Source: Heptranchias perlo (taxonomy: Eukaryota). Taken from it: 64,000 nucleotides of DNA. Below the pieces are notes generated by a model, which saw nothing but the letters and a program-made list of their open reading frames with translations, did not search any database and was not told where the DNA came from. A program made the position numbers and the translations under genes. Below are positions 1 to 39,054 of the stretch, piece after piece. How positions within the stretch are numbered: position 1 is the stretch's first letter; every line of letters starts with the position of its first letter. Location: contig NC_090326.1 in the NCBI RefSeq assembly GCF_035084215.1, positions 156,054,001-156,118,000 of the forward strand, in the 5' to 3' direction.

Positions 1-712
1 CAGTGCTATGGGTGTTGGGCAGGTGCTGATCCTTACTGGGGTCCAGTGCTATGGGTGTTGGGCAGGTGCTGATCCTTACTGGGGTCCAGTGCTATGGGTG
101 TTGGGCAGGTGCTGATCCTTACTGGGGTCCAGTTCTATGGGTGCTGGGCAGGTGCTGACCTCCTACTGGGGTCCAGTACTATGGGTGCTGGGCAGTTGCT
201 GACTCCTACTGGGGTCCAGTACTATGGGTGCTGGGCAGGTGCTGATCCTTACTGGGGTTCAGTTCTATGGGTGCTGGGCAGGTGCTGATCCTTACTGGGG
301 TCCAGTGCTATGGGTGCTGGGCAGGTGCTGATCCTTACTGGGGTCCAGTTCTATGGGTGCTGGGCAGGTGCTGATCCTTACTGGGGTCCAGTTCTATGGT
401 GGCTGATCCTTACTGGGGTCCAGTACTATGGTGGCTGATCCTTACTGGGGTCCAGTACTATGGTGGCTGATCCTTACTGGGGTCCAGTACTATGGGTGCT
501 GGGCAGGTGCTGATCCTTACTGGGGTCCAGTGCTATGGGTGCTGGGCAGGTGCTGATCCTTACTGGGGTCCAGTACTATGGTTGTTGAGCATATGCTGAT
601 CCTTACTGGGGTCCAGTACTATGGGTGCTGGGCAGGTGCTGACTCCTACTGAGGTCCAGCACTATGGGTGACAGGCGAGTGCTGATCCCTACTGGGGTCA
701 AGATCCATGGGC
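1..712. repeat. 43-bp minisatellite (CAGTRCTATGGGTGYTGGGCAGGTGCTGATCCTTACTGGGGTC) with some 32-bp deletion variants; runs off the window start
   Basis: Unit recurs at 1, 44, 87 and onward; shortened units at about 389-485; decays near 660-710. Confidence 0.95.
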
Positions 713-12726: not shown

Positions 12727-13176
12727 ATAGCACCTTTCATGACCTCAGGACGTCCCAAAGCACTTTACAGCTAATTAAGTATTTTTTTGAAGTGTGGTCA
12801 CTGTTTGTAATGTAGGAAATGTGGCAGCCAATTTGCGCACAGCAAGATCCCACAAACAGCAACGTGATAATGACCAGATAATCTGTTTTAGTAATGTTGG
12901 TTGAGGGATAAATATCGGCCAGGACACTGGGGAGAACTCCCCTGCTCTTCTTTGAATAGTGCCTTGGGATCTTTTACATCCACCCGAGAGGGCAGACAGT
13001 TCCTCGGTTTAATGTCTCATCCGAAAGACAGCACCTTGAACAGTGCAGCACTTCCCTCAGCACTGCACTGGAAGTGTCAGCCTAGATTACGTGCTCAAGT
13101 CTCTGGAATGTGACTTTTCAACCCAGAACCTTCTGACTCAGAGCTGAGAGTTCGACCCACTGAGCCACAGCTAACA
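12727..13176 (-). mobile_element. Full-length DeuSINE
   Basis: Reverse complement of the 2350-2798 element, including the tRNA head. Confidence 0.88.
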
Positions 13177-14239
13177 CCTAACGTGTCAACTTCATTAGTT
13201 GTTTTTAAAATTACAAAAAAATGTGGAAATGAAAAACACTTTTTGTCAGGACAAAAAAATCGGTTAAGATTAAATTGTTGCAAACTCACTTTTGCGATGA
13301 TTTCCCCTCCAAAAAGCTGGGCTTTCTTGGTCAGCTGAGAAGTGTGCTGCTTTTTGTATAAAATTTATAATACTTGAGAATGTGTAAGCTCTTGAAACTC
13401 TGTGTAAAAGCAGTGATGGGATTTAAAAACCTAAAATAAAAGCATTAAATACCAGAAACGCACAGCCAGTCTATCATCAACTGAAATTTGTCCCTTTCTC
13501 CAAATCGACCTTGGTTCTACCCGAAATGTAAATCTACTTCTCGTTGTAGATGCTGATGGAGTCGCTGTGTGGTTTTTTTTTGTTCAGCGTTTCCTATTTT
13601 TATTACCCTGTAGAAAAAGAATGCACTTTTACACGAGACATGATTCCTCTTGTAGTTTTGTGTAATAGAGTGAAGTATCGCCCAAAGGCTTATGAAACGG
13701 TGCTGAATATTTTTGTTGGAATGAGGAGAATTATGCAGTTACTTGCTTTTGGACTGTTTTCATACGTTGTTATTCCCATTGTCCTAGCTGAACATTGTAC
13801 TTGCATGAGAGTAGCCCGAGGCTGGGTACGATGAGGAGAAAGTATCCTCCTGACCTTTTTTGTGCAGTGTCGCTGTGTGCATGACTTGTTGACTTGTTCC
13901 AGTCTGCCTGCGCGGTTAGCAGCATTGTGAGTTGAGCTGGCAGAGACTCTGTGTACAGCAAGAGTGAAGAAGTGACTCCGAGCTCATTTCTAAGGTGAAT
14001 GTGAGGAGGTAGAATGTGTTGCAGTTTTGGGGTATCTATTTCAGCTGAAATCAGCGATACTGACTGGGCAGAGGGATTTTTTTTTGTTGTTGTTTTAAGC
14101 TTAAAACTAGAGGTGTGATTGGTTTTCGTAAAGCGACTGTATTGAGTGGCTTGTGATAACCCCGTTGCCTCTGCTGCGTTTGAGTTGTACTGCTTTCAGA
14201 CTACTGTCCGCAATGGTAGGATTTGAAAGAGAGGTAGAA

Positions 14240-14520
14240 CCTCCATTTATATAAGTGACTTTCATGTCCTCAGGACTTCCCAAAGCTCTTTATAACCAGT
14301 GGATTTGTTTTGAAATGAGTCACCCATTTTGTAGGCAAATGCGGTGGGCAGTTTGCACACACCACAAGGTCTCACAAGCAGGAATGTATGAACGACCAGT
14401 TAATCTGTTTTTAGTGATGTTGGTTGATGGAGCAATGTAGGCCAGGACACTGGGAGAACTTTAGTCATCTTCAGATATTGCCTGGGGATCTTTTGCAAAC
14501 ACCTGAACGTGCAAATTGGG
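14240..14520 (-). mobile_element. Degraded DeuSINE
   Basis: Tail and body motifs (AATCTGTTTTTAGTGATGTTGGTTGA, GGCCAGGACAC). Confidence 0.7.
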
Positions 14521-14612
14521 TGTCTTAGCAATGGTTATGTTCATATTGGGATAAGCGTGTAGCCTGGTTAACAGCAAATGTGTTGTCCCATTAAGAAATA
14601 ACTTGCATTTAT

Positions 14613-15290
14613 ATCATAGTATGATACAGCACAGAGGATGCCGTTCGGCCCCTCGTGCTTGTGGCGGCTCTTTGTGGTACAGCTATCCATTTAGTCCCAT
14701 TCCCCTGCTCTTTCCCCGTAGCCCTGCAAATTTTTTCCCTTTACGTATTTATCTAATTCCCCTTCGAACATTATTACTGAATCTGCTCCACCACCTTTTC
14801 AGGCAGTGCATTCCAGATCATAACAACTCACTGCGTTTAAAAAAAAATGTTTCCCCCATGCTGCCTGTGGCTCTTTTGCCGATCACCTTATGTCTGTGTC
14901 CTCTGGTTACTGACCCTTCTGCCATTATTTACTTTATCAAAATCGTCCATGATCTTGAACACCTCTATCAAATCTCCCCTCTACCATCTCTGCTCTAAGG
15001 AGAACAACCCCAGCTTCTCCAATCTCTCCACATAACTGAAGTCCCTCATCCCTGGTACCATTCTAGTAAATCTCTTCTGCACCCTCTCTAAGGCCTTGAC
15101 ATCCTTCCTAAAGTGTGGTGCCCAGAATTGAACACAATACTCCAGCTGAGACTAACCAGTGTTTTATAAAGATTTAGCATAACTTCCTTGCTTTTATACT
15201 CTATTAATAGCCTTTTCAACCTGTCCTGCCACCTTCAAAGATTTGTGTACGTACACCCCCAGGTCTCTCTGGCCCTGCACCCCCTTTAAC
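14613..15290 (-). mobile_element. CR1 3' fragment
   Basis: Reverse complement of the CR1 3' region at 10750-11457. Confidence 0.85.
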
Positions 15291-15984
15291 ACCTTTAGCA
15301 CCTTTCCTGTGGTTTGGAGATCAGGGCAATAAGTGTTACAGCCCTATCTCTGATTCATGTCCAACCAAGCTCCACGCTTAGCAGAGCTTTGTGAAATCAT
15401 CCTTATTGTGTATGGAAAAACACCTAGCGCTACAGTTAGATTTTGCCCTTCGACCCTGGTGTTTAATAGCTTGAAGTACTCAACCAGAGTTTGAGCGAAT
15501 GTGGTCTCAGGCCTCTCTCGTGGGGTAGTGGAAGAAGCAGTTTGTGCTGATGAATTAAGAGTATCACGCATGAAAGCATATTGGAAATAGAACTACACTT
15601 AAGCCTGCTGTTGGTATAGTTGGTAAGCTGAGGTACAGTGCAGGTTATGGTCATGAGCACAGCATTGAAATTCCGCTGTGGCAGAATATGCCCCTCGACC
15701 GCCATAGAAACCACCGTGTTGTGACTTTTCCGCCTGTATTTACTCCTTGGATCAGTTGCATTTGCCAGTACTTGACGTGTCCATGTTAGAGTGTGTGCTC
15801 TCGTGCTGTTGAACTCTATGATGTGTTGCGCACACATAGACCACACCGTCGCCAGTGGCCTTTCCGAGTTGGAGGAGGCTGGGGTGCCCAGTATATGCAA
15901 CGATCGTAATCCGATCACGCCAAGTACTAGCACTGGTCAGAGTCGGACTAGCACCAGTTTGTAAGACTATCAAGAGCGATGAAT

Positions 15985-16180
15985 TCTTACGATCTAGGAT
16001 GGACTGCCTGTAAGGGTGGTGGAAGCAAATTCAATGGTAACTTTCAAAAGGAATCGGATAAATACTTGAAAAGGAGAAATTTGCAGGGCTATGAGGAAAG
16101 AGCAGGAGGAGTGGGATTAATTGGATTGCTCTTCCAAAGAGCCAGCACAGGCCCGATGGGTGGAATGGCTGCCTTCTGTC
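15985..16180 (+). mobile_element. CR1 3' tail fragment
   Basis: GGTGGTGGAAGCA...GGATAAATACTTGAA...GAATGGCTGCCTTCTG. Confidence 0.75.
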
Positions 16181-16651
16181 CTCAAAGGTGATTGGTGTTC
16201 TTAAGGCGTTGCTGCTCTTGTTTTTCTTAGTGTTAGCGGTCGCAGGGCTGGGCAGTACCGTTAAAGTGACCTTAGTGAGTTGCTGCAGTGCACCCTATAG
16301 AAAGTAAGTACTGCTGCCGCAGTGCGTCGATGACGCAAGGGGGCGGACGTTGAGTCCGGAGGCAGGGCGCTCTCTTCCGGATGGCGTTGAACTTCTTGAG
16401 TGGTGCTGAGGCTTGCATCCATTCAGGAAAATGGTGAGTATTCCATCGCATCCCCCCCCCCCCCCCTCCCCCCGACTTGAACCTTGTAGCTGAGCCGTTC
16501 TTCCACACATACCTTTGTAACACGCACTCCGTCTTCCTGTAAACCAGCCGCACTGTGGTGGCCTGCCGTTGCGTGTGTGCGCCGACTGGCCCTGACACTT
16601 CAGCCGGTATGTGGGTGTGGCATAGCGACATCATGATGCTCAGTCGCGACG

Positions 16652-17100
16652 TGGATGGAGGTGCAGTGCAGACTCACCAGAATGATACCGGGGCCGAAAG
16701 GGTTAAGTCATGAGGACAGGTTGCATAGACTAGGCTTGTATTCCCTCGATTATAGAAGATTAACGGGTGATCTAATTGAGGTGTTTAAGATGATTAAAGG
16801 ATTTGTTAGGGTAGATAGAGAGAAACTATTTCCTCTGGTTGGGGGAGTCCAGAACAAGGGGACATAACCTTAAAATTAGAGCCAGGCCGTTCAGGGATAA
16901 TGTCAGGAAGCACTTCTTCACACAAAGGGGAGTGGAAATCTGGAACTTAAACTGAGATTGATAGATTTTTGTTAGGCAAGGGTATTAAGGGTTACGGGAC
17001 CCAGGCGGGTAGATGGAGTTAAGGTACAGATCAGCCACAATCGAATTGAATGGTGGAACGGGCTCGAGGGGCTGAATGGCTTACTCCTATTCCTATGACA
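16652..17100 (+). mobile_element. CR1 3' fragment
   Basis: RLTRMIPG...GDLIEVFK...; CR1 tail. Confidence 0.85.
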
Positions 17101-17380
17101 TCACTGCAGAAGGAACAGCGGGGCGAGTATCTTGTCGGCACCGCTGCGGCTCGAGCTGCGAGATACGCCCCCTTGAACTGGACTCTCCGAGCAGAGGAAA
17201 TAGGGTTTGCAGAGAGAAACTATCAACTCCTTTTAATCATCAGAAACACCTCAAAGTAATGGGTGGTCTTGTCCGATGTTTTTTTTTTCCCCCCCATTTG
17301 GTTTCTGTCAGTGTGGCTGCATGAGACGTATGCGATGGGAGCTGGCTGTCGGAGACCAATATAAAGGCCTAATAAGAAAT

Positions 17381-17561
17381 GATGTGGAGATGCCGGTGAT
17401 GGACTGGGGTTGACAATTGTAAACAATTTTACAACACCAAGTTATAGTCCAGCAATTTTATTTTAAATTCACAAGCTGACGAAGGAGGAAGCCTCCGAAA
17501 GCTTGTGAATTTAAAATAAAATTGCTGGACTATAACTTGGTGTTGTAAAATTGTTTACAAT
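17381..17561 (+). mobile_element. Penelope-like mini-element P1: 34-bp tail plus perfect 63-bp inverted repeat; 11-bp TSD
   Basis: Arms 17415-17477 and 17500-17562 are exact reverse complements; TAATAAGAAAT at 17370-17380 and 17562-17572. Confidence 0.85.
17476..17508 (+). ncRNA. Minimal hammerhead ribozyme core (stem I partner missing)
   Basis: CTGACGA-A-GGAGG-AAG-CCTCC-GAAA-GC-TT-GTGA. Confidence 0.7.
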
Positions 17562-17896
17562 TAATAAGAAATACAAATAGAGCATTGACTTTTGAAATAG
17601 TCAACGTGCACAATGCAAAAACCTGCTTGTAATTCAGTACTTATTGGACACTGACTTAAGTAAGTACAATTTTTCAGCTGTTTGTGCGGAAAAACGTTGG
17701 GAGAATTTTCCCTCTTGTCCTCCATCCTCACCCCACAACCAGCTTTCGTATGAGGTGTGACTTCCTCCGCTGAACACTACCTTCTTTCAGCAAACGACAG
17801 AAATTATTTGATCCTTGGCGTTCTCATTTTCTTGTGGATGCATTTCCTGTTGTTTTCTTGCGGGGCAGGGTTTTAGGTTCTTGCCCCAGTGGGACC

Positions 17897-18455
17897 AACA
17901 TAGAAACATAGAAAATAGGAGTAGGCCATTCGGCCCTTCGAGCCTGCTCCGCCATTCAATATGATCATGGCTGATCTTCTATCTCAATACCATATTCCCG
18001 CTCTCTCCCCATACCCCTTGATGCCTTTTGTGTCTAGAAATCTATCTAGCTCCTTCTTAAATATATTCAGTGACTTGGCCTCCACAGCCTTCTGTGGTAG
18101 AGAATTCCACAGGTTCACCAGCTTCTGAGTGAAGAAATTTCTCCTCACCTCAGTCCTAAATGTCCTACCCCGTATCCTGAGACTGTGACCCCTCGTTCTG
18201 GACCCCCCAGCTAGGGGAAACATCCTCCCTGCATCCAGTCTGTCTAGCCCTGTCAGAATTTTATACGTTTCAAAGAGATCCCCTCTCATTCTTCTAAACT
18301 CGAGTGAATACAGGCCGAGTCGACCCAATCTCTCCTCATACGACAGTCCTGCCATCCCAGGGATTAGTCTGGTGAACCTTCGCTGCACTCCCTCTATGGC
18401 AAGTATATCCTTTCTTAGATAAGGAGACCAAAACTGCACACAATACTCCAGGTAT
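17897..18455 (-). mobile_element. CR1 3' fragment
   Basis: ORF 17984-18439 QFWSPYLRKDI...RRNFF; tail ATAGAAACATAG. Confidence 0.9.
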
Positions 18456-19444
18456 TGTGAAGCGACCGGGAGTTTCTGTCTGTTGCACTGAATCTATGAC
18501 TCACAGTAAGGGGAAGGGCTTGAGTGAATCTGTTTAGGTCAGGACTACAATACAGTTGTGGTTTCTAAATTCTAAAGGAAGTGCTTTGCTGAAGTGTTTT
18601 ATTTTCCCCTGGGAAAATGGCACTGGTTTGATGGGTAGTGCATTTAAAAAAAAAATGTGAGAGCACGCAAAATGACCCTGGGTCTGCCCGCAAGGGTGCA
18701 ATCTGCACCCAGACAATCACCAATAACCCCCTTTAGCTGGATGCTGAGAGGGGAGAGTATTACTCCAATAACCCCCTTTAGCTGGATGCTGAGAGGAAAT
18801 GATAAGGCAAGTCACAGGCTACGGTGTGTATTAAAGCATGGGTATTATTCTTGGTTGGTGGGGCAAGAATAAGGTGTCTGTTAAGTTTTTCACACTCAAA
18901 TCTTCAATTTATATGAACTACTGTTTGGCTTGGATTCGTGAGTCTGATAAGCGGTAGATGGTTTAAAAGGCTGTGATTGGATCATTTTGGGGGGGTGGGG
19001 GAGGGGAGAGAGATCAAAAGTAATCCTGGTATTGCTTTGAAAGTTTCCAGTGTCAATCCTGCACCTGCATAAAACTTTACTTCGCTGTCCAAAATACATA
19101 CGTTATTTTGGGTGTGGGAGAAGGGAAAGAAAAGAGATGTGCACATATAGGTGGTATTGTGTCATTAAAGAGCCTTTTATATTACAGGCTGGGTCTTGAA
19201 ATAATGATACGAGCCCTCCTCTCCCGAATTTGCCTTCAATTCCTACTTGCAGCTCCCTTTTAAAGCGGAGGCAAAGTGCATTCCAAGGAGAGTGAGTGGT
19301 TGTAACAACTTGGCCACAGTGCATGAGCAACGTCATCGTGTCGGCCTTCATCATCTCGTGACATTGTGACACGCAAACATTTACAGGACGAGTTTGTTTA
19401 CTTGATGTCACGGTGTAATGTCATCACCAAGGTGTGCCTTTATA

Positions 19445-19665
19445 AGAAAGAACTTGTATTTATACAGCGGCTTTCATGACTTCAGGAGGTCCCAAAGCGC
19501 TTTCCAGCCACTGAAGTACTTTTGAAGCATAGTCACTGTTGTAATGTCGGAAACACAGCAGCCAATTTGTGCACAGCAAGGTCCCACAAACAACAAGGAG
19601 ATAAATGACCAGATAATCTGCTCTTAGCGATGTTGGTAGAGGGATAAATATTGACCAGGACTCGA
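19445..19665 (-). mobile_element. DeuSINE 3' half
   Basis: Tail and body match 2580-2798. Confidence 0.8.
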
Positions 19666-19739
19666 ATATTCACAGCGACGGTCACGCTGCTGCCAGTACA
19701 ATGCTTTTACTGAACAGGAAAGCCAGCGCGGGTGCTAAA

Positions 19740-20107
19740 AGTCTGTACTATCCACAGGATGCACTGCAGCAACTCGCCAAGGCTTCTTCGACAGCACCTC
19801 CCAAACCCGCGACCTCTACCACCTAGAAGGACAAGAGCAGCAGACCCATGGGAACAACACCATCTGAACGTTCCCCTCCAAGTCACACAGCATCCCGACT
19901 TGGAAATATATCGCCGTTCCTTCGTCGTTGCTGGGTCAAAATCCTGGAGCTCCCTTCCTAACAGCACTGTGGGAGAACCTTCACCACACGGACTGCAGCG
20001 GTTCAAGAAGGCGGCTCACCACCACCTTCTCAAGGGCAATTAGGGATGGGCAATAAATGCTGGCCTTGCCAGCGACGCCCACATCCCATGAACGAATAAA
20101 AGAAAAA
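19740..20107 (+). mobile_element. LINE family B 3' end
   Basis: Near-identical to the reverse complement of 3040-3410. Confidence 0.9.
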
Positions 20108-38362: not shown

Positions 38363-38576
38363 TAGCCATGATGTGGAGATGCTGGTGATGGACTGGGGTG
38401 GACAAATGTAAGGAATCTTACAACACCAGGTTATAGTCCAACAGTTTTATTTGAAAATCAAAAGCTTTCGGAGCTTTCCTCCTTCCTCACCTGACGAAGG
38501 AGGTAAGCTCCGAAAGCTTGTGATTTTCAAATAAAACTGTTGGACTATAACCTGGTGTTGTAAGATTCCTTACATT
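38363..38576 (+). mobile_element. Penelope-like mini-element P2: 39-bp tail plus 88-bp inverted repeat (3 mismatches); 13-bp TSD
   Basis: Arms 38402-38489 and 38492-38579; TGTGTTTTAAAAG at 38350-38362 and 38577-38589. Confidence 0.85.
38487..38523 (+). ncRNA. Complete minimal type I hammerhead ribozyme motif
   Basis: TCAC-CTGACGA-A-GGAG-GTAAG-CTCC-GAAA-GC-TT-GTGA: stem I TCAC/GTGA, stem II GGAG/CTCC, palindromic AAGCTT in place of stem III. Confidence 0.75.
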
Positions 38577-39054
38577 TGTGTTTTAAAAGGATAATGAGGT
38601 ACCTCATAGCTCAGCTGTGATGCTCCCCGTGTCAAATAGCCTGCTGACACTCATTGCCTAGGCTAATGGATGCAGAATGGGTAATGGACAGAGGTACTTG
38701 GGGGGAGGGGGGGAGGGGGGGGGGCGGGGTGGGTGCTGCTGCTGGCAACCTTAAAGAAAGAAAGAAGAAAGAGCTGGTTTCACCAACAGGAGGGAGAAGG
38801 CAAATGGACCGTGGTGGCAACAACACTCGGGGCTCAAATTATGCCTTTGTCACAAAAGCACCGGAAGGGGAGAGGGCCTTCTGAATCAGTGCAGCATCTC
38901 TTCAGTGAGTCTGGATGCCTTGATGTTGTAGATTTCTACTTGCCTTTCCACATTTCCAGTATGACTAAAGAGCAGCCACAGCCCTAATAACAACCGTCGC
39001 AGTGCGCAAGCCTGTGAATTCACCACTCCGCTGAGCTAATGTGATGCTCACAAA

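Follow-up and report, generated by a model that had tools for sequence, protein, structure and literature searches.

A Penelope-like element has left thousands of short mirror-image insertions in Heptranchias perlo, among them a 181-bp palindrome

Is a short palindromic insert with a hammerhead motif in its loop a mobile unit of its own, or a residue of the insertion of another element? The question is raised by a 181-bp insert (17381-17561) in a 64,000-nucleotide stretch of Heptranchias perlo DNA, the whole of which we call the window. The inverted-repeat search returned a single maximal exact inverted repeat, with arms of 63 bp each lying 22 nt apart, and the 34-nt unpaired tail and the 11-bp TSD were found as the initial annotation had described them, together with the length of the insert and of its spacer. 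Reading the sequence also confirmed the CTGACGA-stem II-GAAA arrangement that had been placed across the spacer. Base 17562 is shared, being the final base of the right arm and the first base of the TSD. The coordinates of all features are collected in Table 1.

Table 1. Features of the insert and its borders, in window coordinates (PMC4209133 as far as its accessible text goes)
Feature	Position	Strand	Basis or remark
Left TSD, TAATAAGAAAT	17370..17380	+	last 2 nt (AT, 17379-17380) match the parent too
Tail, the 34 nt of the parent pLTR immediately 5' of the ORF ATG; on this arm only	17381..17414	-	inverted-repeat search and parent comparison
Tailed arm, pLTR copy in leftward reading	17415..17477	-	inverted-repeat search and parent comparison
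Head-to-head junction, 2-nt overlap CT common to both pLTR copies (gap -2)	17476..17477	.	sequence
Minimal type-I hammerhead core (candidate)	17476..17504	+	motif in sequence, fold prediction, PMC4209133
22-nt spacer, the stretch of the tail-less pLTR copy beyond the reach of the tailed copy	17478..17499	+	parent comparison
Tail-less arm, pLTR copy in rightward reading	17500..17562	+	inverted-repeat search and parent comparison
Right TSD, TAATAAGAAAT	17562..17572	+	inverted-repeat search

Inverted-repeat and repeat comparison revealed no tandem units at this locus, which holds a single head-to-head insert. The right flank (17573-17880) is single-copy in the H. perlo genome, so there is no paralogous empty site. 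Among the sequencing runs listed for 17190-17890, none was an RNA run. Among the contig matches listed for four sequencing runs, we found neither a join skipping the insert nor a piece spanning it. We identified no host exon in the vicinity of the element, and the six-frame open reading frames of at least 130 aa resemble, by eye, LINE fragments or simple repeats. Just to the left of the element there are three collinear inverted matches (16776-16866 against 17164-17254), which probably represent two LINE fragments in an older inverted arrangement.

Regarding the source of the arms, the same genome contains a Penelope-like element (PLE) in tandem units with an intact 902-aa ORF (L101:4372-7080), the parent with RT and GIY-YIG domains that the initial annotation had proposed to look for. 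Using Pfam, we found RVT_1 in this ORF (E=3.3e-10) and GIY-YIG on its last 169 residues, the latter with E=5e-4 and 20.7 bits, below the Pfam cut-off of 22.6. The motifs YIDD, VVYLI and WYIGET are present, and a CX4CXXC linker (CHGNLCKTC, residue 753) precedes the endonuclease. According to the accessible text of PMC8557442, a CX2-5CXXC linker between RT and EN is the mark of Neptune and Nematis PLEs; judged by this linker, a feature that Nematis also has, the parent would be a Neptune-type PLE. A PDB sequence search with the parent ORF gave 0 matches at E<=0.01. Two loci (L101 and L102) show ORF-pLTR-ORF tandem units with a period of about 3.08 kb and open 902-aa frames, and in five loci the tail continues directly into the ATG and a long ORF, the upstream sequence encoding the C-terminus of the same protein. 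The 30-mer across the tail/ORF junction occurs 686 times in the genome. Contigs from three runs that were tentatively taken as RNA, but may contain DNA, cover all 30 bins of the parent unit. Two unusual arrangements were also observed: at L101:1254-3992 the upstream parent copy has, owing to an inverted junction, an open 912-aa frame whose N-terminus is foreign, and C2:21273033-21276294 carries at least nine tail/ORF-start junctions with a 404-bp period, an array of head-to-tail pLTR plus ORF start with a retrozyme-like layout.

In the parent pLTR a TATA box is followed by the hammerhead and then by the tail, which ends at the ATG. Taking the ATG as 0, the hammerhead C3 lies at -121, the predicted cut at -92 and the arm end at -35, and TATAAA is found 39-47 nt above C3 in 21 of 23 long pLTR copies. 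The tail and tailed arm of our insert correspond to parent positions -97 to +1, with 100% identity over 99 nt to the pLTR of the intact parent, in agreement with the young age first proposed, while the whole tail-less copy (17476-17562) corresponds to -121 to about -35. The insert consists of pLTR only, without TATA box and without ORF start. With an inverted pLTR, a tail and a minimal hammerhead motif all present, the PLE origin given in the initial annotation also holds.

We searched the whole 3.25-Gb H. perlo genome for exact matches and obtained 62,115 for a 32-mer of the arm and 30,313 for a 34-mer across the arm/tail boundary, compared with 0 for the reversed control patterns; hence, the insert is not a chance structure. 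The window itself holds two further full copies and one fragment of the same family. At 38367-38579 there is a second palindrome of a diverged subfamily (86-89% to the parent), with its tail on the left, a 13-bp TSD (TGTGTTTTAAAAG) and arms that differ at N7 and in loop II. The copy at 52342-52477 is a lone tailed pLTR without a mirror arm, 98% identical to the parent; it begins roughly 12 nt above C3, with a repeat of about 12 bp on either side. A diverged tail-less arm fragment adjoins an N run at 62340-62384. The palindrome under study thus belongs with thousands of similar short, mirror-image inserts that a PLE has left behind.

To avoid selection for likeness, we took the first 100 tail-junction places listed on C1 in order of position, a sample covering the first 8.6 Mb of one chromosome. 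Six loci that were neighbour-flank duplicates or tandem partners (L059, L060, L063, L065, L066 and L075) were dropped, leaving 94. A tailed and a tail-less arm stood head to head in 52 of them, 50 of which were short palindromes; another 15 loci were short single arms and 29 were longer or more complex. A TSD of at least 10 bp was present in 44 of the 50 palindromes, mostly of 12-13 bp (24 of 12 bp), and TSDs were 73% AT. Among the 45 inserts with a TSD, the one studied here included, lengths ranged from 118 to 321 bp, with a median of 218. The outer ends were confined to two places: tailed arms ended within -2 to +2 of the ATG in 65/94 loci, and tail-less arms at -34 to -42 from it in 49/52. 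Longer insertions had outer ends of the same two kinds, tailed and tail-less (e.g. L132/L133, 3.1 kb apart). Exactly one tail was found in 47/47 exact-arm pairs within 400 bp, a set that includes a few pairs from three-arm structures or duplicated loci and in which tail-free pairs are under-sampled, since most sampled loci were picked by their tail. With a palindrome share of 50/94 (interval 43-63%), extrapolation from this one chromosome end gives an estimated 13,000-19,000 perfect hairpins from this subfamily, of the order of 16,000.

Where the arms stop at their 5' ends was measured per nucleotide at risk (n=146). The frequencies were 0.048 at TATA+23..35, 0.023 at +36..+50 and 0.022 at 0..+22, and fell to 0.0036 beyond TATA+50, 0.003 in the next 100 nt upstream and 0.001 further up; since these ends come from BLAST alignment to 23 long copies, positions may carry an error of a few bases, and any subfamily absent from that set would raise the bin adjoining the hammerhead. 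The commonest single position was TATA+30, with 8/115 short-arm ends. The ends form a broad hump with no sharp stop, 27/146 of them run beyond the TATA box, and those of our insert (TATA+39 and TATA+64) are earlier stops than the commonest. RNA starts generally lie about 30 nt downstream of a TATA box. The arm ends would accordingly fit run-off near an RNA start predicted from the TATA box and this spacing, and stalling of the RT at the ribozyme fold, which lies at the same place as the hump, could be an alternative.

According to these results, we read the locus as a single young insertion made of two head-to-head, 5'-truncated pLTR copies of a Neptune-type PLE, one of them tailed, likely made anew at this site by reverse transcription primed from both nicked strands and likely immobile now; we give this reading a probability of roughly 0.7. 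Intact tandem parents are observed in the genome, and from the end points we infer the steps that would follow. An endonuclease would make staggered nicks in AT-rich DNA, as the prevailing length of the TSDs suggests. One 3'-OH would start cDNA near the ATG, giving rise to the tailed arm, and the other would start about 36 nt upstream, giving rise to the tail-less arm. Both cDNAs would be copied from one source RNA, over an identical short stretch at its 5' end, and would stop mostly near the start predicted some 30 nt downstream of the TATA box, not at the ribozyme cut; their ends would be joined by short overlaps or filler, here by the 2-nt CT overlap. If a single RNA is to be copied twice along one stretch, strand displacement would be needed.

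A comparable process is the twin priming of L1, in which two primers from two nicked strands give an inverted product with short junction overlaps, the second primer landing upstream so that the two parts do not overlap. Our insertions would resemble it in their two-strand primers, inversion and short overlaps, but here both parts copy the same stretch, which yields a palindrome. In our literature search, with most subscription papers and Repbase outside its scope, we found neither twin priming applied to PLE pLTRs nor a description of this PLE family.

Priming from two strands is suggested by analogy with the Poseidon protein PAc of Anolis carolinensis, for which the accessible text of PMC11167929 reports that it cuts and extends both strands in vitro, that two internal start sites bound the tail, that a dimer is predicted and that insertion does not need hammerhead cleavage. 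Both systems have two end points about 35 nt apart bounding the tail, a hammerhead in the pLTR and AT-rich targets. In PAc, hammerhead stem II marks the beginning of the ORF, which contains the start sites, whereas here the ATG follows C3 by 121 nt and stands at the end of the tail, and the parent has a Zn-finger-like linker of the Neptune/Nematis type. Two contigs of a related subfamily, from a run guessed to be RNA and matching at 17515, terminate in an A-run shortly after the AATAAA region of the pLTR (17515-17520, inside the tail-less arm). Such ends possibly mark a poly(A) site that would lie upstream of the two priming sites.

At a more general level, the palindromes may record how the PLE inserts, a proposal whose odds we consider about even: a dimeric RT-endonuclease would prime both nicked strands at two fixed 5' sites of the mRNA, and two run-off cDNAs, stopping near the transcription start like retroviral strong-stop DNA, would join head to head. 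If true, this model would explain the tail, the inverted pLTR, the tandem copies needed to move the ORF and the large number of hairpins.

One could argue that the mirror arm is produced by fold-back instead, with one cDNA, or an antisense RNA (PMC3846280), self-priming and copying itself, which would leave the origin as a PLE by-product unchanged. The arms of one insertion are indeed nearly always of the same variant. Loop II variants differ in 3/35 arm pairs and stem I variants in 0/15, compared with 22.2 and 10.0 expected if the arms were independent, so that both usually come from the same source variant; 34 of 51 pairs are identical over the compared stretch, with a mean of 0.8 differences against 2.4 between loci. 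Many junctions are also near-palindromic, and the accessible text of PMC3846280 interprets palindromes at junctions as the outcome of self-priming, with an antisense RNA as template. Polarity, however, speaks against fold-back of the tailed cDNA, which predicts a spacer on the strand of the tailed arm. The tail-less arm reaches further 5' in 20 cases and the tailed arm in 16, both ending within 3 nt of each other in 14; hence, 20/36 informative cases are opposite to the prediction, which fits an even split (p=0.62), and our insert is of this opposite kind. The spacer might also have been inverted between its arms at a later time, which could likewise even out polarity. In our insert, neither arm is a plain copy of the other, given that the tail is found only in the left arm and the core only in the right copy. 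Self-copying would moreover need later conversion for the few pairs that differ at polymorphic sites, and it leaves the stop of the second arm at the second known start site unexplained. Taken together, we regard fold-back as unlikely. In L085, L086, L099 and L159 (around 1330-1520 in tail orientation), the arm differences lie at family-polymorphic sites, a hint of two template RNAs or of later gene conversion.

The hammerhead motif of the insert comprises CTGACGA (17476-17482), an extra A (17483), stem II GGAGG/AAG/CCTCC (17484-17496), GAAA (17497-17500) and the palindrome AAGCTT (17499-17504), with the cut predicted after 17504. As far as the accessible text of PMC4209133 describes them, the minimal type-I hammerheads of metazoan PLEs share with it CUGANGA, an extra nucleotide before G10.1, the G10.1-C11.1 pair, GAAA and a palindromic 15.2-16.2, and the identity as a hammerhead is proposed from this motif and that description. 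The model search suggested in the initial annotation did not add to it, as an Rfam scan of 15000-20000 returned no hammerhead family at E<=5. The same scan gave generic hairpin matches to miRNA models, all below the gathering score, and a miRNA reading was rejected. The core is present in all 23 long pLTR copies, which had been chosen for it. In parent-type pLTRs, stem I (e.g. TTCAC/GTGAA) and stem II can form, and the predicted monomer folds pair some core bases. In the window copy, the mirror arm stands in for the native 5' strand of stem I, and C3, U4 and the cleavage nucleotide (H17) are predicted to be paired with a probability of 0.99-1.0. Forcing the core open would cost about 10 kcal/mol (-103.2 against -113.6, predicted), and the palindrome required for a dimer is predicted to lie inside the long stem too. 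PMC4209133 also mentions paired hammerhead motifs on opposite strands, 100-700 bp apart, derived from truncated PLEs; compared with the hammerheads of that paper, our insert differs in its single core, in the absence of the native 5' strand of stem I and in the predicted burial of that core in the stem. Of the ribozyme first assigned to the insert the motif letters stand, but the structure around them is altered: with the core buried in a 63-bp stem, this hammerhead is predicted to be inactive. It is a passenger of the pLTR.

The initial annotation had interpreted the insert as a member of a non-autonomous retro-MITE family, and a self-propagating palindrome, retrozyme-like, would undergo transcription, cleavage by its own hammerhead and reinsertion in one piece. 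At first sight the best 40 BLAST candidates seem to agree with this, covering almost the entire 181 bp, and the junction of our insert recurs, its 24-mer being found at 7 loci (against the 30,313 tail junctions of the genome); non-autonomous PLE derivatives have moreover been described in what is accessible of PMC8557442 and bioRxiv 10.64898/2026.07.22.740005. The BLAST set, however, was selected for likeness and still shows many different spacers in the 30 candidates examined, while in the position-ordered sample 48 different junctions were found among the 50 short palindromes. The fold-back points therefore vary across the sample, a result that the initial annotation itself had named as speaking against a family. 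As for the 7 same-junction loci, they carry 5 spacer variants, which also mark different parent copies or subfamilies, the exact variant of our insert occurs once among them, and the tail is on the same side as in our insert in 4 and on the opposite side in 3. Thus, the junction recurs through the short CT overlap and not by descent from one master. A copy without TATA box and ORF start and with a core predicted to be so costly to open also argues against propagation as a unit. Non-LTR retrozymes, in the accessible text of the bioRxiv report, are alike in being non-coding, hammerhead-bearing and derived from PLE pLTRs, but they consist of head-to-tail tandem units with a hammerhead in each, whereas our insert is a single head-to-head palindrome with no shared master. 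The retro-MITE reading is therefore largely refuted, and we find it very improbable. Equally improbable is a fold-back point set by hammerhead cleavage of the template RNA: the hammerhead is central in most palindromes and a few arms (L040, L041, L057, L173) end near the cut, but only 3/115 short-arm 5' ends fall within 2 nt of it, most arms, the tail-less arm of our insert included, run through an uncut core, and cleavage is unneeded for insertion in vitro, where uncut RNA is the main template according to the accessible text of PMC11167929.

Returning to two head-to-head pLTR copies as the preferred reading, an arrangement that combines an inverted pLTR with a tail on one side and a TSD has already been published (PMC3846280 and PMC8557442, in their accessible parts). 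Pen2a_Av of Adineta vaga and the scheme of PMC8557442 present the same head-to-head inverted, 5'-truncated pLTR, a tail of 30-40 bp at one end only, a TSD and a palindromic junction. In contrast with these EN+ PLEs, as far as those texts describe them, the 181-bp insert is all pLTR with no ORF, such pLTR-only stubs make up about half of the sampled tail-bearing copies (50/94), and TSDs are mostly of 12-13 bp here and of 8-10 bp there. The locus is an ordinary young product of an intact PLE family, with a known layout.

Its interest comes from the whole population of such stubs, against which models of PLE insertion can be tested. Self-priming on antisense RNA was proposed for the inverted pLTR in PMC3846280, and PMC11167929, in its accessible text, leaves the post-priming steps unvalidated. 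Since this family is young, still has intact parents and offers about 30,000 exact tail junctions, end counts can discriminate between rival insertion models. Formation of a cruciform in DNA or of a dsRNA hairpin, as first suggested for this insert, is plausible, and heavy A-to-I editing has been described for a palindromic repeat in frog and for Penelope in lizard (PMC5625713, accessible text). If about half of the junctions are short, near-perfect palindromes, the H. perlo genome would hold about 16,000 ready-made dsRNA hairpins.
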